Assembly: GCA_964035545.1 (NCBI GenBank)
Contig: OZ037767.1
Location: 21,654,628 to 21,718,627, forward strand
Reading direction: 5' to 3'
DNA from: Bugula neritina
Taxonomy: Eukaryota; Animalia; Bryozoa
DNA: 64,000 bases
A program made the translations under genes and the position numbers. Below the pieces are notes generated by a model. The model saw only the letters and a program-made list of their open reading frames with translations. It searched no databases and was not told where the DNA came from. Positions 1-45,977 of the stretch are shown piece by piece (position 1 is the first letter of the stretch; the number at the start of each line of letters is the position of its first letter).

Positions 1-1
1 T

Positions 2-2281
2 GTCAGTCGTCTGCAGGAGGTCTTCGAGAGACTCCGAGGTGCCGGTCTTAAGCTCAAACCTTCTAAGTGCGCTCTATTGCAGCCAGTGGTTAAGTACCTG
101 GGGCACGTTGTCGGTCGAAACGGCGTGGCAACGGATCCCGAGAAGGTACGGGCAATAGAAGACTGGGTCACCCCCCAAGACTTGACCGGACTCCGGGCTT
201 TCTTGGGGCTGGTAGGGTATTACAGGCAATACATACCAGACTTTGCGGGCATAGCACAGCCGTTAAACCGGCTCACCGCAAAGGGAGTGACGTGGCAGTG
301 GACCCCAGTCGAACAAGGAGCGTTCGACCGCCTCAAGGGCTGCCTACTAATGGCACCCATCTTGGCCTACCCAGACCCCACTCTGGAGTACATCCTTGAC
401 ACTGACACCAGTGACCAAAATGTTGGCGCTGTGCTGTCACAAGTGCAGGAAGGCCGAGAAGTAGTAGTAGCCTACTACAGCAAGTCTCTCTCTCCCACTG
501 AACGAAATTACTGCACTACCCGCAAGGAGTTGCTGGCAGTAATCAAGTCAGTGAAGCACTTCAGACCATACCTATATGGCAGGAAGTTCCGGCTGCGTAC
601 GGATCATGCCTCGCTGATCTGGTTGTGCAAGAGAGCAGAGCCCTCTAGTCAGGTCGCCCGGTGGCTCGAAATCCTAGCTGAATTCTCATACCGGATCGAA
701 CATCGACCGGGCAAGAGACACAGCAATGCGGATGGTTTGAGTCGCCGACCTGATGGAGGTTGCAAACAGTGTCTCAACATCGAGAGGAGGGATGGAGGTC
801 CCCCGCGATGCGAGTTGGAGACGCTGGCTCACCACGGAGCACTGTTTGACTGGGACCAAGGTCAACTCAGACAGGAAGTTGATGAGTCCCCGGAGGGTGT
901 ACAAAACCTCCGCGCCAACCCTGTACTGGCCGGTAATGTTCGAGAGCTGAAGAAGCTCCAAGAAGAGCTGCCTGGAGTCGTGGCAGACATATATCGGGCC
1001 AAAAGGGAAGGGCGACGACCCAGCGAGGAACGCATACGACAGGGATGCGCCGAGTTCCGGCTATACTGTCAGCGTTGGGACTCGCTGCGGATCGGGCAGG
1101 ATGGGTTACTAACCATCTCTCTAGCCGCCGGCGGCAGACAACCGGAGAGGAAGAGGGTAGTCTGCCCCACTGCCATCCGCCGTGAGTTGATTTGGGATAC
1201 TCACAAACAGGCCCACGCAGGGGTCAAGAGAGTGATATCCAAATTACGACTCCGGTGGTATTGGCCACAAATGGAGCGTGACGTCCGGCTCAGAGTCAAA
1301 CAGTGTGAGATCTGTCAGGCCAGTAAGGTTAGCCGTCCCCCTGGTGAGGCAGGACGGCGGAGGCTATATGCTGGTAGGCCCTGGCAAGTAGTCGCTGTAG
1401 ACCTGGTCGGACCCATGCCCCTGACCCCCAGAGGCAATAGTTGGATCTTAGTACTAACCGACCACTTTACTAGGTGGGCGGATGCTCTGGCTATCCCAGA
1501 TGCGTCAGCCCCAACAGTGGCCAGGGCACTAGACCAACATGTATTCTGTTATTTTGGTCTCCCCGAACAGATACACTCTGATCAAGGCGCTCAATTCCAG
1601 TCTCAACTGATGAGCGACCTTTGCCACCTCTGGGGAGTAAATCAGAGCCGGACCACCCCCTACCACCCTCAAGGTAATGGGGTGGTGGAGCGCAACAACC
1701 GGATGCTAGGTGATGCGCTCCGGAGTCTCCTCCTTGGACGAGGCCAAGAGGAATGGGATACGGTGTTGCCGCAAGTCATGCGTGCATACCGTAGCACCCC
1801 ACACACCAGTACTGGTGAGACCCCAAACCTCTTGATGCTCGGGAGAGAGACTCGTGTCCCTGACCATCTCACCTACCACGTTCCAGAGCAAGACAACTCG
1901 GTTCACGAGTATGCCAGTGAACTAGTGGAACGGATGAAAGCCGCACACGATATACTGCGCGAACAGCAGTGGAAGGTGCGGCACGAAGATTCCGATGAAC
2001 CACCTCTCTACCAAACGGGAGATAAGGTGTGGCTGGTCAATTACCGTAGGCGTCGCGGACAGGCTGATAAGCTAAAGCCTAAGTTCGTAGGACCCTACAT
2101 GATCGTCGAGGCTATGCCCAATCATACGTACAAGATTGAGCGCTCAGGACAGGTGTCTATCCAGAATGAGTCTCGCTTGAAACCGTATTGGGCTAGCCCC
2201 GACGCAGTGGGAGAAGCCCCCCCCGTTGTTGGAACCCAGGAGGCAGACAACAACGCGCGGGCGACGGCGGCATGGACCTGA
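2..2281 (+). CDS. pol: Gypsy Pol polyprotein, partial: RT C-terminus, RNase H, integrase
   Basis: Frame is open from base 2. RT end (LKLKPSKC...YLGHVV; LRAFLGLVGYYRQYI). RNase H (LDTDTS..VGAVLSQ; NYCTTRKELLAV; RTDHASL; NADGLSR). Integrase HHCC (H-x3-H...CEIC), DDE (VAVDL, HSDQG, VVER) and GPY/F module (FVGPY). Confidence 0.96.
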   Translation, partial: VSRLQEVFERLRGAGLKLKPSKCALLQPVVKYLGHVVGRNGVATDPEKVRAIEDWVTPQDLTGLRAFLGLVGYYRQYIPDFAGIAQPLNRLTAKGVTWQWTPVEQGAFDRLKGCLLMAPILAYPDPTLEYILDTDTSDQNVGAVLSQVQEGREVVVAYYSKSLSPTERNYCTTRKELLAVIKSVKHFRPYLYGRKFRLRTDHASLIWLCKRAEPSSQVARWLEILAEFSYRIEHRPGKRHSNADGLSRRPDGGCKQCLNIERRDGGPPRCELETLAHHGALFDWDQGQLRQEVDESPEGVQNLRANPVLAGNVRELKKLQEELPGVVADIYRAKREGRRPSEERIRQGCAEFRLYCQRWDSLRIGQDGLLTISLAAGGRQPERKRVVCPTAIRRELIWDTHKQAHAGVKRVISKLRLRWYWPQMERDVRLRVKQCEICQASKVSRPPGEAGRRRLYAGRPWQVVAVDLVGPMPLTPRGNSWILVLTDHFTRWADALAIPDASAPTVARALDQHVFCYFGLPEQIHSDQGAQFQSQLMSDLCHLWGVNQSRTTPYHPQGNGVVERNNRMLGDALRSLLLGRGQEEWDTVLPQVMRAYRSTPHTSTGETPNLLMLGRETRVPDHLTYHVPEQDNSVHEYASELVERMKAAHDILREQQWKVRHEDSDEPPLYQTGDKVWLVNYRRRRGQADKLKPKFVGPYMIVEAMPNHTYKIERSGQVSIQNESRLKPYWASPDAVGEAPPVVGTQEADNNARATAAWT

Positions 2282-2817
2282 ATACGAAGTGGTCATACCG
2301 CGGGAAGAAAACTTGGTGAGAGAGGAGCGACAGCTTTTGCCAACGGAAGCGTGTCCGCCACCGCCAAGTTTAATTCCATCACTTCCAGAAACCGAGCCGG
2401 TTCCGGAAGTGCAAAACCCCACGAAGGGAGGGGCTCCATCCGGAGAACAAGAAGAGGTGACCGCTAACGGTGAAGTGGAGACGCCATTAGAGGCCCCTAC
2501 TAACGAACCGGCGAGCGTGTCACCCCCCCTAGAAAGGGGACAGCGTACGAGGCAACCCCCCCGCATACTTAAAGGACTTCGTATGCGACTGCGTTAAAAG
2601 CGGCGCGTACGAAAGTCTAGGGGAAAACCGTACGAGGAAAGTATCGAGCAAATGTGGGAGTTGTCAACACCACGAAAATATCAACTTTTGTATCGGCGGA
2701 AATAGAAACAAAATTCATCCGCCGGGTGCACAAAGTCTTAATCACGCACCCCAACCACGTTGCTCGATCTTTTCATACGCTGATGCAGTCAGGAGTAGAC
2801 ATGTTTCTAAGCAGTAG
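2217..2817 (+). pseudogene. Frameshifted C-terminal extension of Pol
   Basis: Removing one C from the C8 run (2217-2224) and one from the C7 run (2556-2562) gives a continuous frame EAPPLLEPRR...RGQRTRQPPAYLKDFVC... to TAG 2815-2817. RxRxPPxYLKDF/YV is a typical Gypsy integrase tail motif. Confidence 0.75.
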
Positions 2818-2841
2818 TTCAAACCATTTCACACATTCAGT

Positions 2842-3913
2842 ATGTCTTACGACAACAGATCGTGGGGTGAGTTAACTATATCTTAATATGAAACTAGATT
2901 GCATCGCTCAGCTCCGACTCACTGAGTCAATCGAGCTGGAGATAGGTTAGTGAAATACCGTAGTAAGAACTCAGTTTGACTTAGAGATTTTTATAATCTC
3001 ATTGCAATACGTGTTCTATCTGACTATTCACTGCCATAAATCTCTACGAGGTAACTGAATTAGGAGTTGCCAAGCTATTCAAGCTGACAACACGGCAGTG
3101 TACTGTATTAACACTGTTGAAACTTTTTCAGATTACACTCGACCCGCTACAACCAGGGTACGGGATAGAGCACTTCCCGCTCCGCATCCTGAGGAGTATG
3201 CCAATGGTGACCGGCCCGAGCCACTACGCCGCCGTTGGCGGTGGGTGTTTCCAGAAACAGAGGAAGAAATAGAAACGGCCTGGGGGTCCAGAGGACGGAC
3301 GAGATGCCAGATTTGTGGCGAAGAATGTGCCTCTCACCGCTCCTTGAAGCTACATGTTAACGCCCATCTCCTACTCACATTCTGCCCCTGCGGATACAAT
3401 GATGTGTACCCCTACCCCGTCACCAGACATCGAGCGGCGGGCTGTTTCTCTGGAGAGAATTATGTGGTTGACGTCAAGCTCTATCCGGAATTCCTCACCC
3501 TGATACGACCCCTAGTAAAGAAGGCAATGTTGTTGGCCGTCCTGACCTCGGGTTTCCAACGCGTATTAGACTATGCCAGACAACAATCCCCATTGGTATC
3601 TGACCGCCCTCAGATGGTGTACACCCCCGACGAGTTTGCCTATCCAGAAGAAGGAGAGGTCTCCCCCGCCCCGATGAAGAGACGAACCAGGTCTCCCAGT
3701 CCCCCTTTGCGCCGCAGACGGACACCGTCCCCAGACCCAGTTCGCCTGGCCACAGTAGAGGAACGCCTCCTCCGACTACAGGAGGAATTCACCCAGTTAG
3801 CACCGGATTTACTTAATACTACGACGGGGCTCTTCCAACTAAAAGGATCAGTAGGCCGGATGAAACGGAAATTGCGTACATGCCAAGCCAAGCACCGGCG
3901 TGCCCAACAATGA
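2842..3913 (+). CDS. Retrotransposon accessory ORF3: spliced zinc-finger / basic / coiled-coil protein (~268 aa; exons 2842-2866 and 3132-3913)
   Basis: ATG 2842 (MSYDNRSW), then phase-1 donor G|GTGAGT at 2867. Acceptor ACTTTTTCAG at 3131 restores the frame of ORF 3098-3913. Canonical C-x2-C-x12-H-x3-H finger, then CxC-x12-H-x4-C, KRRTRSPSPPLRRRRTPSP, and a Leu-rich heptad-like C-terminus. Confidence 0.72.
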
Positions 3914-4174
3914 CTCTAGTTCTGCTACCCGGAATAATCCACAACTTCGTCCTCTTGGGAGACCCAAGAAGGTCCTGCAAATGCTTGACTGCTCGACAGG
4001 CCTACTCCTTGTCTAATACCACAGCTAGCCGGTATTCCTCCTCTATAGCTGGTCAATTGTATGTAACCGGCTGTTATAATGACTCTGTCTGTTATTATGT
4101 ATCTTTATATGTGTTATGTATTATTTTGGTCTACTGGTGTATGTGGTTAATAATGAACGTTTTTTTTATATATC

Positions 4175-4204
4175 AGAAAGAGGGCTTTCTGCTGGTGGGG
4201 GCGG
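4175..4204 (+). other. Polypurine tract (plus-strand primer site)
   Basis: AGAAAGAGGG...GGTGGGGGCGG immediately before TGTGG at 4205. Confidence 0.6.
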
Positions 4205-4519
4205 TGTGGTGGCTCGTGGAGCTACCAGCAGCACAACATGTAGGGTCGCGTAATTGACCCGGAACAATGGATAGCCAATTAGCGTGTTTGATAGTTAGCA
4301 GCAATTATAGTTTCCCGCTGCTAACTCAGTCGAAGTTAGAGTGCTGAATAGATTAGATGTGTAAATTGTCAGATGTATTTGTATCGTTTTTATAATGTAT
4401 TATTGTGTGTAAAATATATACTCGTTCACTCGACTTATCCTGGTGCAGTTCTATAGCAAGTAATTAGACTCTCTGGATAGCATATCAACCCTAAATCTGA
4501 AAAACATAACAGTATTACA
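4205..4519 (+). repeat. Probable 3' LTR (~315 bp)
   Basis: Starts TGT right after the PPT and ends ...TATTACA where composition changes. The 5' LTR is not in the window, so the ends cannot be verified. Confidence 0.6.
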
Positions 4520-5440
4520 TTTACTATTAGTATTACTATTAGTATTACTCTATTAGCATTACTATGTCTATTGTCGATTAGTAATACTAATAGTAATAGT
4601 AATACTAATAGTAATAGCAATAGTAATACTAATAGTGCAAATCCAAATTGAAATTTAATTTGAACTTGTGGCTGTGCAATTGCAATCGCCAAACACAATG
4701 ACAATCACAATGACAATAAATATTATATTTAATGTTATAATACACCCATTATCATTATGATTACATCTAGATATTCATATTGGCTATTACTGATAAAGTC
4801 TTTTTTTTGTATAATTTAAAATCAATGAGACAATGAGTGTGACTCAGGAGCTGGCAGTAGCCAGAGCTTTTCTATATTTTTGTGCTAAGCCTAATGAGTA
4901 ATGACAGTAAGCGCTCCAAGTCAAATATATGAATAATTCTTCAGTAAGTTTCGCGATCCTGTGTGTGACTGAACTCGGACTAAACCAAAATTTCACCATT
5001 AATTAGCATTATTGAAAATCTATAGATCTTAAAGTTTTTTATTTTCAATAATTATGATGTTTGGAGATACATTCACAAAGTGCAGTAAAATTATTTTTTT
5101 TCTACTATTATGTTGATAATCATAAATTATTATGAATAGGGTTCAACCATTAAACTATAACCTTCTATAGTTTCAGTTCAGTGGGTTCAACTGCAATACA
5201 TAAAATGCCATAGAGTTATCCTCTTTTTAGGTTACACATGGAGTGTTGTGCAAACGACTCTGTTTATGAATTATTCCGCTATAATTGGTTAAAAAAATTG
5301 ACGGAAAAGTGTTTTGTTTATATATAACTCTTACTAATATGTTTTTAATTGCAATAAAAGTAATTTTAAACAAACTTTAGTTGTTATATACTATTTATAA
5401 GTATGTGGTTTTTATATTATTTTTCTATCGCGGATCATCG

Positions 5441-5523: not shown

Positions 5524-7779
<2,256 letters not shown>

Positions 7780-8794: not shown

Positions 8795-26331
<17,537 letters not shown>

Positions 26332-27899: not shown

Positions 27900-29696
27900 T
27901 CCTACAGCCAGCATTCTGCCTCAATCATTCTAAAATATATGTTGGATTTATTACTAAATTACTGAAACCACTATAAAATATTTAACCCAGTTTACATTAA
28001 ATTGCTAATGTCTATTGGGCTGTGTGGGTGTGTTTATGCTACTTTTATAGCCTTTAACCTTTTGAACCTGATGACATAATTTAAGGGTAATCTTGCATAG
28101 TCCCAGTTTTTCTACTCAGAATGAATTGCGCCAGACAAAACAAAATAGGCATTAGTTTGAACAATTACGACCATATGAAGGGTGGTTTAACTGAACTGTT
28201 ATGTTTACCTTTATTAACCCCTTCGGAACCTAAACTGATCAGAATGGAGACTATGAGAGAGTTGTAGGAAGATTTAAATATCTTATGGATATGGTAGAGG
28301 ACAATAACAGATGTTGAGTGTTACTCTTGTGAAACACATGATACCTCTTATACAAAACATTCATTGCAAGGTCCCCCCCCTCCTCCATATGAAAAATGAT
28401 ACTTGGTCTATCAGTAAATAGCAAGAGGCAAAGGTTGGGGCTTTAAAAAGTTGAGAATAATATGATGCATCCAATAAATAGAATATTAGAAAAAAAGAGC
28501 CGTGCTATAACTGGTGTCCATGTATATTGTAAGAGGAGGATGAAGCAATTTGAAAGGTTGCAGACGTCCTAAGACTACTAGAATAGAAAAGAGAGAAGCT
28601 AAAAGATCGTGGTAGAGAGACACTTATATGAACTTTGGTTTGAGAAAGTATATGGTATATGGACAAGAGTGGTGCGAATCCGATACAACAACTGTCTTCA
28701 CTAACTGAGTGAGTGTCATGCAGGACAGCAACCCTAACAAGAGCAAGAAAAGCAAAAAACATAGTTATTTTCATAAATATAGACCAGCAGTTATAGCTGT
28801 AGTGAATGGGAGGTTATACTTAAAAAGTCCACAATCGTAATTTGATCACCATTTATCTTATAAAAATTTTTTATAGGCTATGTATTGGTTATTGTTTATA
28901 TTATAAAGGTTCACCACCCCCTCCCCCCTTTCTATAAAACTGCTAGCAATAATCTATCAAGTAGTATGATCTCTTGAGAAGACAACTCTCAATATGATGA
29001 ATAAAATATTATAATGTACTGAAATGCTTTTTAGGTAGACAACAGTAACACATTGGAATAAAACTGAACCTTACAGCAACTGAAACACTCCTGTGAAATG
29101 GTTAGCAGGTTGTGCAAACCATTTTTGGTATAAGTGCTACAGATATAACACTAGAATAACATATTAGATGAAAGTACTCTGGAATGCAAAGGCGTTATGT
29201 GAAACAGCTTAATAAAAAGTATATATTTGAAAAAAGTATTTCAAATGTCATAAATATGCAAATTATGGAATATTGCTGCACTGCAGCATCAATGTGTTGA
29301 TCATTTATGTAATATTTTACCTTATTTTATCACAAAACCATAGTATCAACTTACAATACTTAACAACAAGCTATTGTATATTATTTATTTATTTTCAAAA
29401 GCAGAAATATGTTATTTATTTTCCAAAGTATAGATAACAAACAACGATGTGCTGCCAAGAAACGAAATAGCTGAAGACCAAAGAGGAGTGAGCAGGATGG
29501 CACTACCTTGCGTTTACCCAGATGAATAGACTGTGAGTCAGATTATTGTGATTATAGCATATATACAATAGTTTACATATAATTATTATACTATACTTGC
29601 AGATTTGTATATACATCAAACTTGATGCCTTCCTGTGAAACCCATGCAAGTGAAAGTTGTAGTGCACATAATCCATAGCATACACAGCACACATAA

Positions 29697-30938
29697 TGAC
29701 TAGTAGGGGATATACAGCGACTAAAAGGTGATATACTGGGACTAATAGGTGATATACAGTGACTAGTGAGTGATATACTGGGACTATTAGGTGATATACA
29801 GTGACTAATAGGTGATATACAGTGACTAGTGAGTGATATACTGGGACTATTAGGTGATATACAGTGACTAATAGGTGATATACAGTGACTAGTGAGTGAT
29901 ATACAGTGACTAACAGGTGATATACAGTGACTAGTAGGTGATATACAGTGACTAGTCGGTGATATAGAGCGACTAGTAGGTGATATACAGTGACTAATAA
30001 GTGATATTCAGTGACTAGTGAGTGATATACTGGGACTAAAAAGAGATATACAGTGACTAATAGGTGATATACAGTGACTAATAGGTGATATACTGTGACT
30101 AATAGGTGATATACAGTGACTAGTAGGTGATATACAGTGACTAGTAGGTGATACACAGTGACTAGTAGGTGATATACAGTGACTAGTAGGTGATATACAG
30201 TGACTAGTAGGTGATACACAGTGACTAATAGGTGATATACAGTGACTAATAGGTGATACACAGTGACTAATAGGTGATATACAGTGACTAGTGAGTGATA
30301 TAGTGGGACTAATAGCTGATATACAGTGACTAGTAGGTGATATACAGTGACTAGTAGGTGATATACAGTGACTAGTAGGTGATATACAGTGACTAGTAGG
30401 TGATACACAGTGACTAATAGGTGATATACAGTGACTAATAGGTGATACACAGTGACTAGTGAGTGATATATAGTGACTAATAGGTGATATACAGTGACTA
30501 AAAGGTGATATACTGAGACTAATAGGTGATATACAGTGACTAGTAGGTGATATACAGTGACTAATAGGTGATATACAGTGACTAATAGGTGATAACACAG
30601 TGACTAATAGGTGATATACAGTGACTAGTGAGTGATATACTGGGACTAATAGCTGATATACAGTGACTAGTGAGTGATATACTGGGACCAGTAAGTGATA
30701 TACCGGGCTAATAGGTGATATACTTCAACTAGTAGGTGATATACAGTGACTAGTGAGTGATATATAGTGACTAATAGGTGGTATACAGTGACTAGTAAGT
30801 GATGTACAATGACTAGTAAGCGATATACAGTGACTAGTAGGTGATATACAGTGACTAATAGCTGATATACAGTGACTGTTAGGTGATCTACAGTTACTAT
30901 TAGGTGATCTACAGTTACTATTAAGTGATCTACAACAG
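29697..30938. repeat. 21-bp minisatellite (GGTGATATACAGTGACTA(G/A)TA), roughly 59 copies
   Basis: Directly visible; it generates the repetitive ORFs (VTVYHLL)n and (SHCISPI)n on minus. Confidence 0.97.
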
Positions 30939-33765: not shown

Positions 33766-36649
33766 ATGGAGTTACTTGAAGGTAAAGACGCCTGCATGAC
33801 TCTCAGTGCATTTGCTGTGCTCCTCCTAGTCGTCTACTATATCAGGACCCACTGTAAGAGATATCCGGCTGGGCCCAGAGCTCTTCCATTTATTGGCAAC
33901 CTCCACCAGATCAGACGCTCTAAATCTATCGTCAACTTCTGTGAACAAAACAGGAAAATCTACGGAGATGTATGTTTATATTGCACACACTTAATAAAGA
34001 ATACTGGACTAAACCATTCCTAGTTTTTTACTTACTACACTTTTTATGCTTTATTAAAAAAATACTTATTTAGGTGTTGAATATAACACCAGTTTGATTT
34101 TGAAATGATATTTATATTTTTTTAAATTTATCGCTATTTATTGCTACTTACAGGTATTTACCATAGAAATTGGCGGTACTAAGAGAGTGGTGGTCTCTGG
34201 CTATAAAGCTATGCATGAGCTACTAATACTACACGCAGACTGTACAAGTACCAGGTCAATAAAAGCCTTCACCAAAACTATCCAGGAAGATTCTAAGGTC
34301 AACCCTGGTAAGATATTGTAGTGTACGTGTAGATATAATTAGTTTGCATATTATTTACTGCGAAATCAAATCTGTGTTGTTAATTTAATTGACAAATATT
34401 AAATGGATTATTCAATTTAACTGTAACCAGTGGTTTTTACTCTCCAGGATTGGTATGGGCGCCATTTCCTCAGTGGAAGAACATCAGGAAGTTTGCATTT
34501 ACTGAGCTGAAGAAAGAAGGAATGGGGAAATCCATAATGGAGCTCCAAATCTTAGAGGAAATTGACCAGTACACAAGTACCTTTATTCAACCTAACCTCT
34601 CTAAGCCAATCAACATGCACCTAACACTTCCACAAGCTACTTGTAACATCATCTCCCAACTAGTGTTTGGCCGACGTTTTGAGTACAATGATGAAGAGTT
34701 CAACCGAATGATAAGCGCTCTAAATGAGTCCATGGGCCTCATCTCGCAGGCAACAACTCTCCGGAATATTCCGTTCATCAGCTTCCTCATGAAGTCGGTT
34801 ATTATGAAAGAACAACACTTGAAACGAGATGTCATGATTCCAACTATCCGAAAATACATTGAAGAACATAAGATGAGTTTAGACCCAGCCGCACCCCGTG
34901 ATCTTATTGATAAACTACTTATTGCTGCTAATTCACAGCATGGCTTTTCAGGTAGATAAATTATTGAATTGATAGAAATGCATAATATTGTATCATAAGA
35001 ACTATGCTTTATTTTGTCAAATTTTGAAAGAAAGGTCTATTCTTGCTTGTACATTGTAATAATTGCTTTTGCTAAGGATTGCTGACTTTAAACACTTATG
35101 TATTTGAACACAAGAAAGTATGTTCAACTAAACTTGCACAATTGTAGAGAGCAATGCTGCCTTTGTCAGTTTCCACCTGTATGCTGCTGGATCAGAAACG
35201 ACTGCAACGACTCTTAGATGGGCTCTGCTCTTCATGTGTAAACACCCTGACATTAAACGGATTGTTCAGCTAGAGATTGATGAACAAATAGGTAAGTCAT
35301 AATTCAACCAATTAAATATAACATCTACTGAATTTCTTACTTGCAATAATTACATATACAAAAAAAATTGTGTACTCAAATTCATTATGCACTGGTGCAG
35401 AATCTATTTTTTGCAATTGATGTGAACAGAAATTTGCTGTCTATGATTAATGGGCATGATTGTATTTTGTCTTTCTAATTGCCACTAGTTAATATTTTAT
35501 TAATTACAAATTTTATGCACAATGTTCAGGCCTGGACCATGCAGCCTCCTACAAAGACCATCTCCATATGCCGTATACAGATGCAGTGTTGATGGAAACA
35601 ATGAGAATCAGTAACGTCGTAGCTACGTCACTTCCCCATTACACTAGTGCCGATATCTTCATAGATGGAAAAGTAAGTCAATATTCAAAATGCTATATAA
35701 TTACTATTTTTTAGATTTGAAAATTATTTATAAAATTTCTTATTTCGTTGTTTTTGAATAATTAAAAACCGGTCGGAAACTATTTTCTTTTGTAACCAAA
35801 TCTTTTGTCTTTCCAGATGATTCCAGCAGATACTGAAATTCTATTAAACATGGCATCTGTTTTACACGATGAGACGGTGTTTGAGGACCCTACAAAGTTT
35901 AAACCAGAAAGGTACCTGACTGGAAATATAGCCTTGAAGAAGCAGAGAACTATTCCGTTTGGCATTGGTGAGTGCTACTTCTACCATACAAGGTGCAGCT
36001 ATGCTTTCATAATCACCATGGCAGGCAAATGTGACACAAACCTGATAAAACTGAAAACCGGACACCGATTTTAAGATAAACAAAATTGTTTTTGAACATT
36101 TCAAATGATGATGATTTATGAAGCATCGGAAGTATGTTCAATAATAAACCGTATGCACTATGTGTGGTTTTAACCTCTACATATGTATTTTTCTTGAACT
36201 ATTAATGGTCGCGCACAACCTAGCAACGGCTATTTGTCTTTTTAATAATGTTTTTTTGTTTCCTTTTTTTATGTACTTTGAAATCAGCTTCATGCTGTTT
36301 AGTTAGTAATTATTTATCAATTATCTCTGAAGCTATAGTGCATTTGAGCAACGGCTAAGTATTCGAGCAATCCGGTATTTCTTTTGTCCAAACATACAAA
36401 CTTCTGGCATATCGACACTAATAGATCATAGAATGTCTGTTTACAATCTATTTACTGTTTACAGGTAAAAGAGCTTGTCTGGGAGAGAGTTTAGCTAAAA
36501 TGGAGTTGTTTCTTTTCTTTGTGACTTTGATGCAAAAGTATGATGTGTGTCTGCCTCCCGAGTCAGCAGTAACAACAGACCCAGTTACAACATTATTAAA
36601 TATGCCACAGAGCTACGACATCCTTTTCTCACCTAGGGGTTACTTGTAG
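33766..36649 (+). CDS. Cytochrome P450, CYP2 clan, copy A, 494 aa (exons 33766-33969, 34154-34307, 34448-34951, 35148-35291, 35530-35672, 35817-35967, 36465-36649)
   Basis: N-terminal TM anchor, [13 protein letters not shown] hinge, WKNIR (C-helix), AGSETT (I-helix), ETMR (ExxR), FKPERY, FGIGKRACLG heme motif. All introns GT-AG and phase-consistent. Confidence 0.95.
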
Positions 36650-40085: not shown

Positions 40086-43000
40086 ATGGAGCGCATCACT
40101 GACACATTGCAGTGTCCCAGCACTCTTCTCCTGTCTCTCATTGCCAGCCTTGTATTTCTCAATCTTTATAAGAGAGCGACAAGCAGGTATCCAGGTGGGC
40201 CAACACCCCTGCCGTTGCTAGGTAACCTTCACCAGATCTTTTATTGCGGCTGCCTCATCAAGTTTTGTGAGAAATACCGAAGGATTCATGGAGATGTAAG
40301 TATAGCCTAATATTTACAAATTTGTCAACCTAAAGGTGACCGCCAGACGGCACCCTCAACATTTCTGAGTTCTGTTCACCGATTAACTGTTTTAAATAAT
40401 AATAATCAATATATATATAAATTTTTGTAGCAATGAAAATTCTATTACTATAGAATAAAGCAATTACTTTTGAACACAAATTTTACACTTGAGCTAAGCA
40501 AAAAGCTGCATACCTGCACCTAAAAGCAATTGCTGAAATTAAGTGCAGATCTTTGACTGTGTATGAAATTATACGGAAATTGAATGGCATCTTAACTTCA
40601 GAAACCAATTAGAGCATAGAATGCTAATCATGATAATGATTTGAGACAGAGAAACATAATTAAACCCTTAGTTATTGAAATAGAACCAAAATATGCATAA
40701 AACCTTATTTTTAACCAAATGTGTTATTGCAAAAGTCTATAATAATACTACGACCTCATATGCTGTTACAGTCACAGTTTAATATTACAATCCCACAAGT
40801 TATTACAGTCATAGTCTATAACTTTATAAGACAACTCTTTTTTTTCATTTGTTGTCTAGGTTTTCACTTTTGAAGTGGGAGGTAAAAAAAGAGTGGTGAT
40901 ATCAGGATATGATGCAATAAAAGAACTACTCGTGGATAACGCACAATACACAAAAACTCGCTCTCCCGCGAGTAGAGGGAAGTTGTTGACTCGTCATTAC
41001 AAAGATACTCCTGGTATTATATATAAGTTCAGTATTGTAGATTCTATAATTAGGCAGCAGCTGTGGTCTAGGGGTTAGAGCATTTGCTTAGTAAGCATGA
41101 AGTCATGGATTCGAACCCCGACAAAGGCCATTGGTGATGTTGAAAGGAGCATCCAATCATAACTGCTCCTGTGCCCCATCTGAATAATTGTCCTTAGCCT
41201 GATTCAACAAAAACCCTTCCATCAGGGGTTTCTCACAGAGATGGCGACTATAAACTTGCGTGATTTTATTGTAGAATCTATAATTGTAGTCATATTGTCA
41301 TTTATATATTATACAATCATACTACTATCTCATATATTTTGGTTTATAATATGCTTAGTGAAACTAATTACTGTGTCACCAAAAGATTAGATGTGACATT
41401 TGGTTGACCAGAAATGAAGCTCATGTTAGCTATAGATAAAACCCACCTGTTGTCCTAGCAACAGTTTTAATTATATTGTATACATAATATAACACGTAAT
41501 TATAAAATGTATTTTATATTCATAGTATGAAAGGAATGCCTTATATTTCTTGACTCCTAAAACTTTAAAAAAAAGTCAAGTCTGCTATTAATAATTATCT
41601 ACATGCATTGAGATCTATCTTTTTCAAAGCCTGACTCACTAGTTTTAAATAATTCTTTCTATTTGAAGTAAGCACCTCATATGTCAATACATAATTTACT
41701 ATATTATTATAATATATGATAGTGTTATGTATCATTTCTTAATTAAATATTGCAAGAAGATACAGGACAATATTATGTATTATGTAAAGTATTATAGCAA
41801 AGGTGACCAACTTTTTCAGACCTAGGGCCACTGAAAGGGAAAAATCAATTGACGAGAGCCACATTGTAAACTTTAGTTTGGGCTGGAGGGGGAGCCACAT
41901 CATTAGTAATTTTCAAAATACTTTATTCCGAAATTCTTATTAATAATTACACAATTAAGCCTTGATAGTTACTGCAGGCTGCATGCTTTGTGGCAGGTGT
42001 ATAATTTATAAGACATTTAAGAAAAGTTTTTCACTCTAATTCATATATGTGCAAAAATAATTTTATTTGCTATACCTTTGAGGGCCGCATAAATGTAGGC
42101 TGGGAACCACATCCGGCCCTGGGGCCGCCTGTTGGACAGCCCTGTATATTATAGAATAAAATGCAGCACAAAGCGATTTAATATACTGTAGCATAATGCA
42201 ATATACAATGTATTATAATGAAATATAGAACTATGTAGTTTTAATGTTGTAATTCAGTATTTTAAAGCATGCGCTATATAGTATATATTCTATAACATAT
42301 ATTACTATATAATAGAACACAACAATAAATACATTGGCCAACAGTGTAATAAAGCACAATGCAATTGCTATATACGAGTAAAGCCTACTGCTGTAAAGAA
42401 TGTGAGAATATTATTATATATAAAAGATTCTTTCTCTACATTAAATTACTTTTTACCATACATGCATGTATACCAGCTCTTAATAAAGATATATATATAT
42501 AAATTATCAGGGTTGTAAAGAGCTATAATAACTTGTTTTGCTAGATCTGGTTATCTCTAATTCAACATAAACATGTGGATGTAAAGCTCCCACGGTGAAA
42601 ATTGATAACAAATTTCTACGCTGACCGACTATTTTATCTGAAAAGTCTATTCTTAACCCTTACGGATCAAAAGACTATATATGTCCCTTTGACTTATATA
42701 CAAACAATAGCGCTTACTTTAAACTTCGAGCTTTTTATAAAGCTTTTGTTGGCCATATTATATGTTTCACTACTTGTGAACATCACAATATACTTGAGCT
42801 ACAGGGTTTTATTTCTTAGGTCGCAATTAGAGCTTCTTGTTCCATGCATAATTTCATTTGCCTGTGTTTTAAATTTCAGGCATAATTTACGCTTCTTACT
42901 CAAGTTACAAGAGACTAAAGTCTATGCTAATAGCGACAATCAAAGACGAAGGTCATGAACTCGAGGCTAAGATGCTGCAGGAACTGGAAGACTGCATGTC

Positions 43001-45977
43001 TCACTTTATAGAACCAAGTCTAAATAAGCCTGTTAATATAGAACAATGCATAGCCTTAGCTACAAGTAATATCATCAACCAACTCACAATAGGCAAGCGC
43101 TTTGACTACTGCAACCAAACCTTCATCACTTTACAGTTGAGTCTACAAGAATACCTTCGAGTGACCATACAGTGCGGGTTGGTAAGCAGCCTTCCTTTGA
43201 GTGATGCCTTCTTAGGACCAATGGTCTCTCGGTTCAACCACCATTACGAGCATTTCTCACTGCCAACAATCTCACAGCTCCTAAAGGAAATGAAAAGTAC
43301 CATGAATGTTGAAGACCCACACTATGTGATGGAAAGGTTTCTGGCTCATTCTCAGCGTCCAGTAGAGATTCAAGATCCAACTTACAGCGGTAAACATAAA
43401 CTGGAGTTATCTCAACGTGCAGGGTACATGCTGCAGTTATGGTGCTGTAATCAGCCTGTAGTGTGCAGACTGTACAATGTTTGGGAAGCTTTAATGTGAC
43501 TAAGCGCATGCATTATGCGCTTTTTCTCATATTGTTCTTCCTGAATAGCAAAAACTTACGGAAGGTGAATATAATACATGAAACATTGATGGATGACACA
43601 GTATCAGCATTAGAGCAAACTATACACAGTTTACAAAATAATGACTTAATTCTTTGCACAATCTCATTTAGCCATCTTTATGTATATTTTTGTATACCTA
43701 CATGATCCATAGACGTTTTAACAATTGCAAGCACTCACTATCGCCCACTATTGTGCACTACTGCTTGTTGTTCATGAAAGTTATGTTTCGTTTAATAACT
43801 TTTAATTTAAGAAAGTACACAGTTTTAATACTCATTTGTGTTTGTAATCTGTTTTAGAAGCCAATGCTCCATATTTCCTCTTCCAGCTGCTTTTAGGAGC
43901 CAGTGACACTACCTCCGCAGCCTTGAGATGGGCGTTTCTTTTCATTGGTTCTAACTTAGAGGTCAAGCTGAAAGTTCAACAGGAAATAGATAATGAATTA
44001 GGTCAGGTGTAACACAATTATCATCCCACAATTAACTTAAACACCTTAAAAGATTTCTAGCAATGCTTGTAACTGTGTAAAATTTAGAATATAAATTATA
44101 GTTTATTGATTATCAAAAATAATGAATAGAGTTAACCTAAATAACAGGCAGTAAGTCTAAAATCAATTAATTATTTTATATGTTACTAGTAAAAACACCA
44201 CTAGAAAGCAATTGTTCTACAGATTATTTTATGAATCATTTTAAATATATATTCTTTAATTATTTATAAATTATTCTATAGATCATTTTACGGATCATTT
44301 TATGGATTCTTCTGCAAATTATATTGTATTTCGCAGGTCAGGATCGGCTGCCCTCCTTCAATGACCTCCAACATATGCCTTATGTAGAGGCTGTGTTACT
44401 TGAGACTCTTCGTAGAGGCAGCATTGGCACTTTGTCTTTGCCTTACACGCTCACCGCTGACTGCGTTGTTAAGGGAAAGGTGTAGTAAACCAATAGTCAT
44501 CACTCTATTAATAGTTGTCACTATATTATTTTATAAAATTTTCAAGTGTGGATGTTTAAGGAAAATAGGAAAATCATACAGTGCAATAGGACTAATTATT
44601 GGAAATCAAAACAATTTTTTATCAAACTTATTCTTTTCTTAAATGATGAGCATTTGGTGGCGAATCCAAGTGATATAATTAAAAGTTGAAATTTTGGTAA
44701 AAGTCGAGTTTATTTGTTGGCGTTGGGCATAAAGGACGAATTACTGCTTTCATTATTATAAAACATGATCTTAAGCAGACTTTGTATAATCTTGATTTAG
44801 TCAAATTAAATCATTTGCAATAATATTGATTTTCAACAAAAGCAGAGCAAACATTTTGCTATTTTTACAGTTGATTCCCGCTGGATCTGATTTGATGATA
44901 AATTTCCTTTCTGTTTTACACGATGAGACAGTTTTTGAACAGCCTTTGAAGTTTAAACCAGAAAGATACCTGACTGGTAATATAGCTTTGAAGAAGCAGA
45001 GAACTATTCCATTTGGCATTGGTGAGTATTGAGTGTATCTTGCATAGCACTTACTGAAATAAAGAATATACACAACTACGTAATATGTACTCTATAACGA
45101 TGAAAGGCTGTATCAAAGATACTTAAATCTATCTTCTTTATTTATTACTTAAATTTCTACTAAAACACTTGCACTTACTAATAATAATTTTTTAATAAAC
45201 ATTTACCCCTGCAGCTACCTACATTTTGACCAATCATAACAATTGGTTTTACTTACATTTTGGTCAAAACACTTCAGATTGAATAAAAAAAGTAGTAGAT
45301 GTACCAAAAACAATTTGCTTCTAATACAATTTTTCATCATAATTCTGCCTGATAAAGCCAACACATATATCAGTTTACACCGTATCACAACACAGCTGTA
45401 CATGTGATCTTTTGGACTGTATTGCATCTCACTTTTCACACTCAGCATTCGAACTGAAATAGCTGCACCATATCATAGCTTGTTATACCTTACAGCTAGT
45501 GTTGTTAACTTCTATTGTGATGATGTTGTACCTCAAGGTAATAATATAGTATTACTATATGTTTTATTAGTATAACATAATGTAATAACACTATAACATA
45601 TTATATATATATCATATTATGTAATATTATACTGTATTACACCATATTTATATGGCTATGCAATTGCTACTATATTGTTGTTATTAATTATTACCATGCT
45701 TGCTAAATATATATAAATTGTGCTGCATTGCTCTATGTTTTTGCCTATTGTGATATCTTGAATACTACCAAACTATAAGATATTTTAATTACCTTTAGGA
45801 AAAAGATCTTGCCCTGGGGAGAGAATTGCTAAAATAGAATTATTTCTATTCTTAGTTAGTATTTTACAGAAGTATGACTTCACCCTAGTAAATCCACTAG
45901 ATTTATCCTACCCTGCTATTGATGTTGGCTCAGTATGCAGTCCATCACCTTATGACATCATATTCACTCAGAGATAA
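40086..45977 (+). CDS. Cytochrome P450, CYP2 clan, copy B, 496 aa (exons 40086-40295, 40860-41013, 42880-43389, 43858-44001, 44337-44479, 44871-45021, 45799-45977)
   Basis: Same 7-exon architecture as copy A, with identical lengths for exons 2, 4, 5 and 6. PGGPTPLPLLGNL, GASDTT, ETLR, FKPERY, FGIGKRSCPG. Confidence 0.93.
41056..41268 (+). mobile_element. tRNA-derived SINE, copy 1 (CYP-B intron 2)
   Basis: Pol III A box TGGTCTAGGGG and B box GATTCGAACCC. Body (GGTGATG..GAGCATCCA..GCCTGATT..GCGACTATAAACT) is shared with 59940-60152. Confidence 0.8.
41797..42144 (+). mobile_element. hAT (Charlie-like) MITE
   Basis: Right end GGCCCTGGGGCCGCCTGTTGGACAGCCCTG; degenerate left end CAAAGGTGACCAAC. 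About 130 bp match 52053-52187 in reverse orientation. Confidence 0.75.

Follow-up and report, generated by a model that had tools for sequence, protein, structure and literature searches.

The 64,000-nucleotide stretch of Bugula neritina DNA analysed here (hereafter the window) begins inside a retrotransposon that carries a long open reading frame (ORF) between its pol gene and its polypurine tract. The preliminary description of this locus read that frame as the main part of a spliced, non-Env accessory gene encoding a zinc-finger/coiled-coil protein, and proposed a nuclear regulator as its product. The questions raised by the locus are consequently whether this ORF is a gene of the element, how it is expressed, and what its product might do.

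A Gypsy LTR retrotransposon, represented by its 3' half, takes up the first 4.5 kb of the window. The window opens inside the reverse transcriptase (RT), and the 5' portion of pol and the 5' LTR lie beyond it. Pfam matches in the pol segment comprise RT_RNaseH (4e-34), rve (5e-17), Integrase_H2C2 (6.5e-15) and SH3_Tf2-1 (4.6e-6), and the element has the Ty3/Gypsy domain order of RT, RNase H and integrase with H2C2 and a GPY/F-type C-terminus, as well as a polypurine tract (PPT) followed by a TG...CA LTR (Table 1). The pol reading frame is disrupted near 2.2 kb and 2.55 kb in this copy, and the two further frames that make up the probable pol tail are matched by the homologues P0042 and P0073. 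Sister-copy variants over this tail are synonymous in 9 of 20 cases in the frame of 2533, versus 4 and 6 in the other frames. The pol tail of this copy probably ends at the stop at 2815-2817, which is just 24 nt upstream of the ATG at 2842 and in the same frame. Both the sister-copy variants and the depth were taken from contigs of one public run (X1) covering the region, the variants being counted among the best 40 of 156 rows in one listing and the best 40 of 43 in the other. Within pol, 17 of the 24 listed variants are synonymous, compared with ~0.30 expected (p <0.001). Summed contig depth is ~17,000-176,000 over the internal region and ~140-680 on the flank at 4.6-5.6 kb, climbing over the 3' LTR and dropping to flank level past ~4.6 kb. 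This excess over the flank indicates that the Gypsy element is a multi-copy family, although the depth figures give no copy number. Depth is several-fold higher over pol than over the third ORF, but such figures cannot rank genes.

Several features of the host sequence beyond the element were also observed. A host Atg8/GABARAP gene with introns lies on the same strand ~1.05 kb past the 3' LTR (5560-7000, ATG at 5560). The sequence TCAG directly precedes this ATG, suggestive of an intron in the 5' UTR, and the element may therefore sit in or near the Atg8 5' region. Further along, exon-sized ORFs on the minus strand at ~9400-24000 resemble parts of a CHD3/4/5 (Mi-2) chromatin remodeller (chromodomain, helicase motifs), and exon-sized ORFs at 34393-34959 and 42873-43499 resemble cytochrome P450 fragments. 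The sequence at 35810/44864 is a direct repeat of 164 nt, as a tandem pair of genes would give, and a tandem array of ~50 copies of a 21-nt unit occupies 29565-30700.

Table 1. Features of the retrotransposon and its accessory gene, in window coordinates
Feature	Position	Strand	Basis and details
Gypsy pol, 3' part	2..2281	+	RT end, RNase H, integrase (H2C2, core, SH3/GPY-F-type C-terminus); ORF and Pfam
Probable pol C-terminal tail	2181..2817	+	two further frames, 2181-2597 and 2533-2817; stop 2815-2817
Possible weak upstream splice acceptor CATTCAG	2834..2840	+	sequence only
Putative first coding exon	2842..2866	+	25 nt, MSYDNRSW plus 1 nt
Putative GT-AG intron, phase 1	2867..3131	+	265 nt, GC 0.38
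Exon 2 of accessory gene	3132..3913	+	259 whole codons from 3134; stop 3911-3913
Folded double-zinc-finger domain	3221..3601	+	exon-2 residues ~30-156; AlphaFold2 and ligand counts
Finger 1	3305-3367	+	within folded domain
Finger 2	3383-3445	+	within folded domain
Basic RS/SP-rich stretch in disordered linker	3677..3733	+	subfamily-specific; pLDDT ~50
Long amphipathic helix (predicted coiled coil) and Arg/Lys-rich tail	3746..3907	+	helix residues 205-258
Polypurine tract region	4175..4204	+	sequence; frameshifted tail of homologue P0065 matches 4119-4208
Probable 3' LTR	4205..4511	+	307 nt, TG...CA, Inr-like TCAGT at 4326; boundary inferred (5' LTR outside window)

The gene model proposed in the preliminary description consists of a micro-exon that begins at the ATG at 2842 and is joined to the long ORF across an AT-rich intron, and all of its coordinates check. 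The donor reads GGG/GTGAGT, with its GT at 2867, the acceptor TTTTTCAG ends at 3131, and the two exons join in phase to give 268 codons. The GC content of the putative intron compares with 0.56 in exon 2 and in pol, and the intron contains stops in all three frames and branch-point-like sites at 3084 and 3108. The stop-to-stop ORF that holds exon 2 spans 3059-3913, and its earliest in-frame ATG, at 3527, falls past both fingers; in this copy, translation must therefore begin further upstream. Among the ATGs present in 2590-2866 (2652, 2783, 2801 and 2842), solely that at 2842 is in phase through the intron. A possible further acceptor, CATTCAG, had been placed 2 nt before this ATG. The sequence is present, but the gap is one base; its pyrimidine tract is weak and a consensus scan did not pick it. 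A second donor-like site, GTAAGA, is found at 2963 inside the intron, and the read-through of homologue P0025 has Gly-Glu-Ser near the matching place; this site may possibly act as an alternative donor. Listed sister-copy variants are synonymous in 7 of 12 cases in exon 2, versus ~0.30 expected (p 0.04-0.05), and in 2 of 3 cases in exon 1 (p ~0.1).

A search with exon 2 identified 65 homologues at E<=1e-3 and 46-92% identity among 1645 candidates. Among representatives of 50%-identity clusters, 105 matched at E<=1e-3 and 50 at <=1e-10, reaching down to ~25-30% identity. Among twenty distant representatives that were looked up, just two carry a name, each being a protein of the bryozoan Watersipora subatra; a third is labelled 'hypothetical' and the rest are unnamed entries from ENA, Logan or JGI. 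In an alignment of 57 sequences, mostly 16-33% identical, the zinc ligands are kept as follows: C58 in 54/57, C61 in 57/57, H74 and H78 each in 56/57, C84 in 57/57, C86 in 55/57, H99 in 53/56 and C104 in 47/54. At seven of the eight positions the ligand is thus retained in 53-57 of 56-57 rows, and this, like the number of homologues, exceeds what chance would give. W37 and V112-D113 are also near-invariant, and the dominant spacing in the family is C-x2-C-x12-H-x3-H-x5-C-x-C-x12-H. Mean identity within the close family is highest in the predicted coiled coil (0.82 for residues 201-240), intermediate in the fingers (0.66-0.67) and lowest in the linker (0.35) and N-terminus (0.31). Furthermore, a heptad signal follows the fingers in 14 of the 25 distant homologues long enough for the test, and the profiles of two distant subfamilies can be aligned over the whole span between the fingers and the C-terminal helix, with a probability of 99.65.

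Some of the homologues retain other parts of an element. P0042 starts with the pol tail (E 2e-7), P0073 starts with the end of pol (E 8e-6), P0065 ends in the PPT and LTR start (E 6e-4), and P0145 has a retroviral-type protease in the same ORF as the double-finger domain (E 4.5e-6). Judged from the protein sequences, these four acquired element parts through deletions or read-through, and they document the link to Gypsy for the close family and two distant branches, though not for the family as a whole. P0145, which represents a cluster of 4 from ENA, is a 1145-aa ORF with an aspartyl protease at its start and the double-finger domain near its end; an RT or integrase match was not found in it, and it is likely a non-autonomous, internally deleted element that retains the accessory domain. 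Longer fused forms were not seen among 6149 candidates of 1044-2980 aa, which is weak evidence, and homologous loci were not found in metagenome contigs, viral contigs (also with a pol query) or prokaryote genomes. Two double-finger copies precede the C-terminal helix in P0072/P0165 and in P0116. P0072/P0165 are RefSeq 'uncharacterized' Watersipora subatra proteins with annotated isoforms, and they could be either element genes or domesticated copies. The family, its ligands and the Pfam matches in the adjoining pol uphold the central claim that this Gypsy element has, in its env slot, a conserved accessory gene for a zinc-finger/coiled-coil protein that is not Env, and the accessory gene is almost certainly real.

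Splicing has been probed through these homologues. The stored proteins stem from gene calls of the bacterial type, which run on into intron sequence, and 15 of them matched the motif at the acceptor position; P0105, whose match to the motif comes from a distant family and is of uncertain homology, was left out, which gives n=14. In 13 of these 14 close homologues the residue before the acceptor Asp is either Ser (10) or Leu (3), the products of a retained CAG or TAG and hence compatible with a YAG acceptor. In the 14th, P0024, an unrelated Met-started peptide of 14 residues is joined exactly at the acceptor Asp. P0026 and P0174, which are 66-68% identical to P0024, have the same residues after the Asp and intron-like sequence upstream of it, and the P0024 joint is suggestive of what a spliced transcript or a processed copy would look like. 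The first peptide of P0024 differs from MSYDNRSW and is without a match in positions 1-4600 of the window, suggesting either that first exons vary between subfamilies or that P0024 draws on an exon further upstream, in the leader or gag. P0025, which is 47% identical over exon 2, opens with Val-Ser (GTG-Ser), at a distance of 88 codons (265 nt) from the acceptor Asp. This upstream stretch equals the window intron in length and frame, the window intron also opens with Val-Ser, and pieces from the interior of P0025 fall at the corresponding places of the intron, 2893 and 3047, with a frameshift between them, which suggests that the intron is homologous but not coding. The arguments from P0024 and P0025 each come from a single protein that is known from its protein sequence. 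The proposed intron thereby receives indirect support from homologues, through the residues at the acceptor, the joint in P0024 and the 265-nt register of P0025, and splicing at the 3131 acceptor is very probable.

Among the sister copies, both of the listed indels within 2842-3300 lie in the intron. No intron-less joint (2866/3132) was found among the contigs of run X1, which show presence, not absence. No listed variant falls on the ATG, GT or AG, and this is uninformative, as there are 43 variable places in 761 nt and the seven critical splice and start bases would escape variation by chance about two times in three. Use of the micro-exon at 2842 is probable. Its ATG is in phase in this copy, but as the sole start of the family the micro-exon is weakened by the different peptide of P0024 and by an in-frame Met ~16-18 residues into exon 2 in 20 of 32 aligned close rows (missing in this copy, P0001 and P0002). 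With an internal Met in so many close rows, most subfamilies may be able to do without the micro-exon. The first exon may differ by subfamily, being the micro-exon here, another Met-started peptide in P0024 and possibly an internal Met elsewhere. On these comparisons, the ORF belongs to a conserved third gene that a multi-copy Gypsy element carries between pol and the 3' LTR, and this gene is likely expressed from a spliced mRNA.

The predicted protein contains two zinc fingers of the types that had been proposed, and both are confirmed on sequence: finger 1 is C-x2-C-x12-H-x3-H and finger 2 is C-x-C-x12-H-x4-C. While a first AlphaFold2 model made from close homologues only was poor (pLDDT 57), the model made with a deep alignment has a mean pLDDT of 83, with values >90 for residues 31-150 and 211-259 and a disordered linker between them. 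In addition to the fingers, the folded domain holds a conserved Trp-helix, a V-D strand and helices. The residues of the finger-2 helix are subfamily-specific on a fixed scaffold. Prediction of a homodimer gave a score of 0.02. The peak 19-residue hydropathy is 1.51 and falls in a lysine-containing helix of the folded core, so there is no transmembrane (TM) segment; the N-terminus is polar. No signal peptide, TM anchor, F- or gB-type fusion ectodomain or Env Pfam match was found, the model being a zinc-finger domain plus one helix, and the assertion that the product is not Env therefore stands. The same is not true of the proposal that the RS/SP-rich stretch is a conserved nuclear localization signal (NLS) or RS domain, as KRRTRSPSP is present in just 3 of 61 close homologues. 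An Arg-rich tail after the coiled coil is present in 54/61 of them and carries a net charge of +8 in its last 19 residues here; from its sequence, this tail appears the better NLS or nucleic-acid-binding candidate.

Comparison of the fingers with known folds gives weak matches. Finger 1 has the PF00096 pattern C-x2-C-x12-H-x3-H, with its conserved Leu in 47/57 and Phe in 32/57 rows, and scores 13.7 bits, below the curated cut-off of 25.2. Six of 57 family members match PF00096 at E<=0.01, and Pfam gives sub-threshold C2H2 matches only. PDB profile matches are almost all to DNA-binding C2H2 proteins, on finger 1 only. No match at E<=1e-3 was obtained with Foldseek against PDB and BFVD; the fold searches used the whole model, and the finger domain may yet have a known fold. 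With a second aligner, residues 52-106 superpose weakly (Z 3-3.8) on tandem C2H2 pairs, including those of ZNF217 (Z 3.8, rmsd 3.2, 51 aligned) and Kaiso (Z 3.7, rmsd 3.0, 57 aligned). Finger 1 shares the C2H2 pattern with the ZNF217/Kaiso/BCL11A pairs, whereas the accessory protein differs from them in its five-residue linker to a CxC second finger, its conserved flanking helices and its sub-cut-off Pfam score. A wide VIA fold search returned generic coiled coils only (Z up to 6.4), and the homologue P0133 matched unnamed clusters in the Atlas at 0.93-0.94, with nothing named above the bar. The CxC spacing of finger 2 is similar to that of the plant BIRD/IDD-STOP finger pair. The structure rows for P0133 in the Atlas have TM 0.2-0.3, under the bar, no PF22995/PF23115-type model appeared in Pfam scans of the family, and the PDB profile matches included no IDD structure. 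The helix ahead of the fingers slightly resembles the zinc domain of integrase, but at a probability of 0.7% this relationship was rejected.

The protein is probably a nuclear, nucleic-acid-binding regulator. More tentatively, we propose that it is a dimeric, DNA-binding nuclear self-regulator of the element's transcription. In this mechanism, the third gene would be expressed from a spliced mRNA from which the intron 2867-3131 is removed, the coiled coil would pair two two-finger heads into a dimer, and the basic tail would provide nuclear import. The dimer would then bind DNA of the family that encodes it, either in the LTR or in the internal region, and switch the element on or prevent its silencing, like the spliced transactivator of a complex retrovirus. 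Spliced regulatory genes 3' of pol are found in other complex retroelements, namely Tas/Bet of foamy viruses, Rev of HIV, and Tax/Rex of HTLV. The PDB profile and the PDB and BFVD Foldseek searches found no sequence or fold link to these proteins, and the parallel is a functional analogy only. The lean toward DNA is drawn from the PDB profile matches to mostly DNA-binding C2H2 proteins, the tandem-pair superpositions, and the basic residues at two finger-1 helix positions (46/57 and 43/57 rows). Against it, the structural matches are weak (Z under 4 and no Foldseek match at E<=1e-3), a shared finger fold shows no function, and position +6 of finger 1 is mostly Val/Leu (37/57 rows), which is unusual for a base-reading finger. 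The additional conserved helices point to a module packed for interaction, and the sole tested Gypsy precedent, the CERV protein, acts on RNA export rather than on transcription. Overall, we rate action at the level of DNA and transcription rather than RNA at somewhat below even odds.

CERV, which regulates its own element, Cer1, a Gypsy/Ty3 element of C. elegans, is a nuclear protein whose function has been tested (PMC10309623, accessible part). A factor of the CERV or Rev kind would use the fingers and Arg-rich tail to bind unspliced genomic RNA and the coiled coil to oligomerise, such that intron-containing RNA leaves the nucleus. Any element that contains splice sites needs a route out of the nucleus for its unspliced RNA, a need that Cer1 meets with CERV, and the retention of the Arg-rich tail in most close homologues accords with this reading. 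CERV itself, according to the available text of the same source, is made from a spliced mRNA and has a leucine zipper or coiled coil, a candidate NLS and a Cys-rich loop that is a putative zinc site. It differs, by that description, in having 517 aa, five exons (three of them in the gag frame), H, M and G domains and a possible C4 finger, while the accessory protein has 268 aa, lies 3' of pol and carries a C2H2 and C2HC pair. The predicted model accordingly has neither the H-M-G architecture nor the gag-shared exons of CERV, and with the two proteins compared by description only, no sequence or fold link was found. Furthermore, a simple nuclear export signal pattern gave two matches, both within the folded core, and finger 1 has classical H-x3-H spacing. 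An RNA-export role is the main rival reading, though somewhat unlikely.

A protein that counters host silencing or restriction (piRNA/RNAi, a chromatin repressor) through protein-protein contact is less probable still. The fixed scaffold with subfamily-specific finger-2 helix residues suits such a role, and small zinc-binding viral silencing suppressors are known (PMC555535, in the part available). The case is an analogy only, as no homology to such suppressors was found in Pfam, PDB or BFVD. It is improbable that the protein is a particle or integration cofactor, that is, a tether for the integration complex or a structural or RNA-chaperone protein. The combination of coiled coil, basic tail and nucleic-acid-type fingers fits a tether, and the domain is in frame with pol-derived sequence in P0145 and P0073; these joins, however, look like internal deletions, the protein lacks a TM segment, and what retroviruses express from a spliced gene of its own is Env or a regulator. 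Equally improbable is an unspliced or differently started gene, in which an internal Met or promoter serves most subfamilies and the micro-exon is a chance or private feature, or a captured host fragment that is drifting: the internal Met, the lack of an intron-less joint in the one run and the donor-like site at 2963 favour it, but this copy, P0001 and P0002 retain both fingers without that Met, distant subfamilies share the position of the donor, the length of the intron and the acceptor, and the ligands are invariant in the alignment, which argues against drift.

The dimeric DNA-binding regulator may be set against what is already known of third genes in LTR retrotransposons. Gypsy-like elements of bdelloid rotifers carry non-env ORF3s that are on the sense strand, in the env slot and family-specific, and that are typically expressed from spliced messages; these, however, are GDSL esterases, DEDDy exonucleases, and TM or coiled-coil proteins, and the word 'zinc' does not occur in the available text (PMC5408684). 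The extra ORFs of plant LTR retrotransposons are likewise conserved, placed between pol and the 3' LTR, in some cases spliced (Bagy2) and mostly of unknown function, whereas those in sense orientation are env-like with TM segments and others are antisense, a double zinc finger not being described in the accessible portion of that source (PMC7264820). In Gypsy elements from a wide range of animal phyla, this slot is occupied by errantivirus Env (PMC13524379, in part). In contrast to the accessory protein, which has no signal peptide, TM segment or Env match, it is a membrane fusion glycoprotein. No description of a double-zinc-finger/coiled-coil ORF3 was found in the open literature (including the available parts of PMC8556966 and PMC2774666), Repbase, GyDB and subscription journals being outside the scope of the search, and the domain family was not found in Pfam or PDB. 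Cer1 CERV and the non-env ORF3s are earlier examples of a gene in the env slot, of its splicing or of a regulator encoded by a Gypsy element, while the protein family appears to be uncatalogued. Nor is the concept of a 'complex' LTR retrotransposon new, as Cer1 CERV precedes it (PMC10309623, as far as available).

On the broadest interpretation, this is a widespread, old lineage of invertebrate Gypsy elements that are 'complex' retrotransposons, each with its own spliced regulator built on an undescribed double zinc finger and coiled coil, with subfamily-specific recognition helices tuned to the DNA or RNA of each element, as an independent parallel to Tas and Rev. We regard this as rather doubtful in its entirety. 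The uncatalogued zinc-finger domain explains some of the 'uncharacterized' invertebrate proteins in RefSeq, and as the protein is small and well folded, its target, whether LTR DNA, genomic RNA or a host silencer, should be findable by standard assays. CERV is the sole animal Gypsy accessory regulator with a tested function found in the literature. If the present reading is true, the gene described here would add to CERV another family of third genes that are spliced and do not encode Env, unrelated to it and apparently widespread, and LTR retrotransposons would have repeatedly gained regulators, like complex retroviruses.
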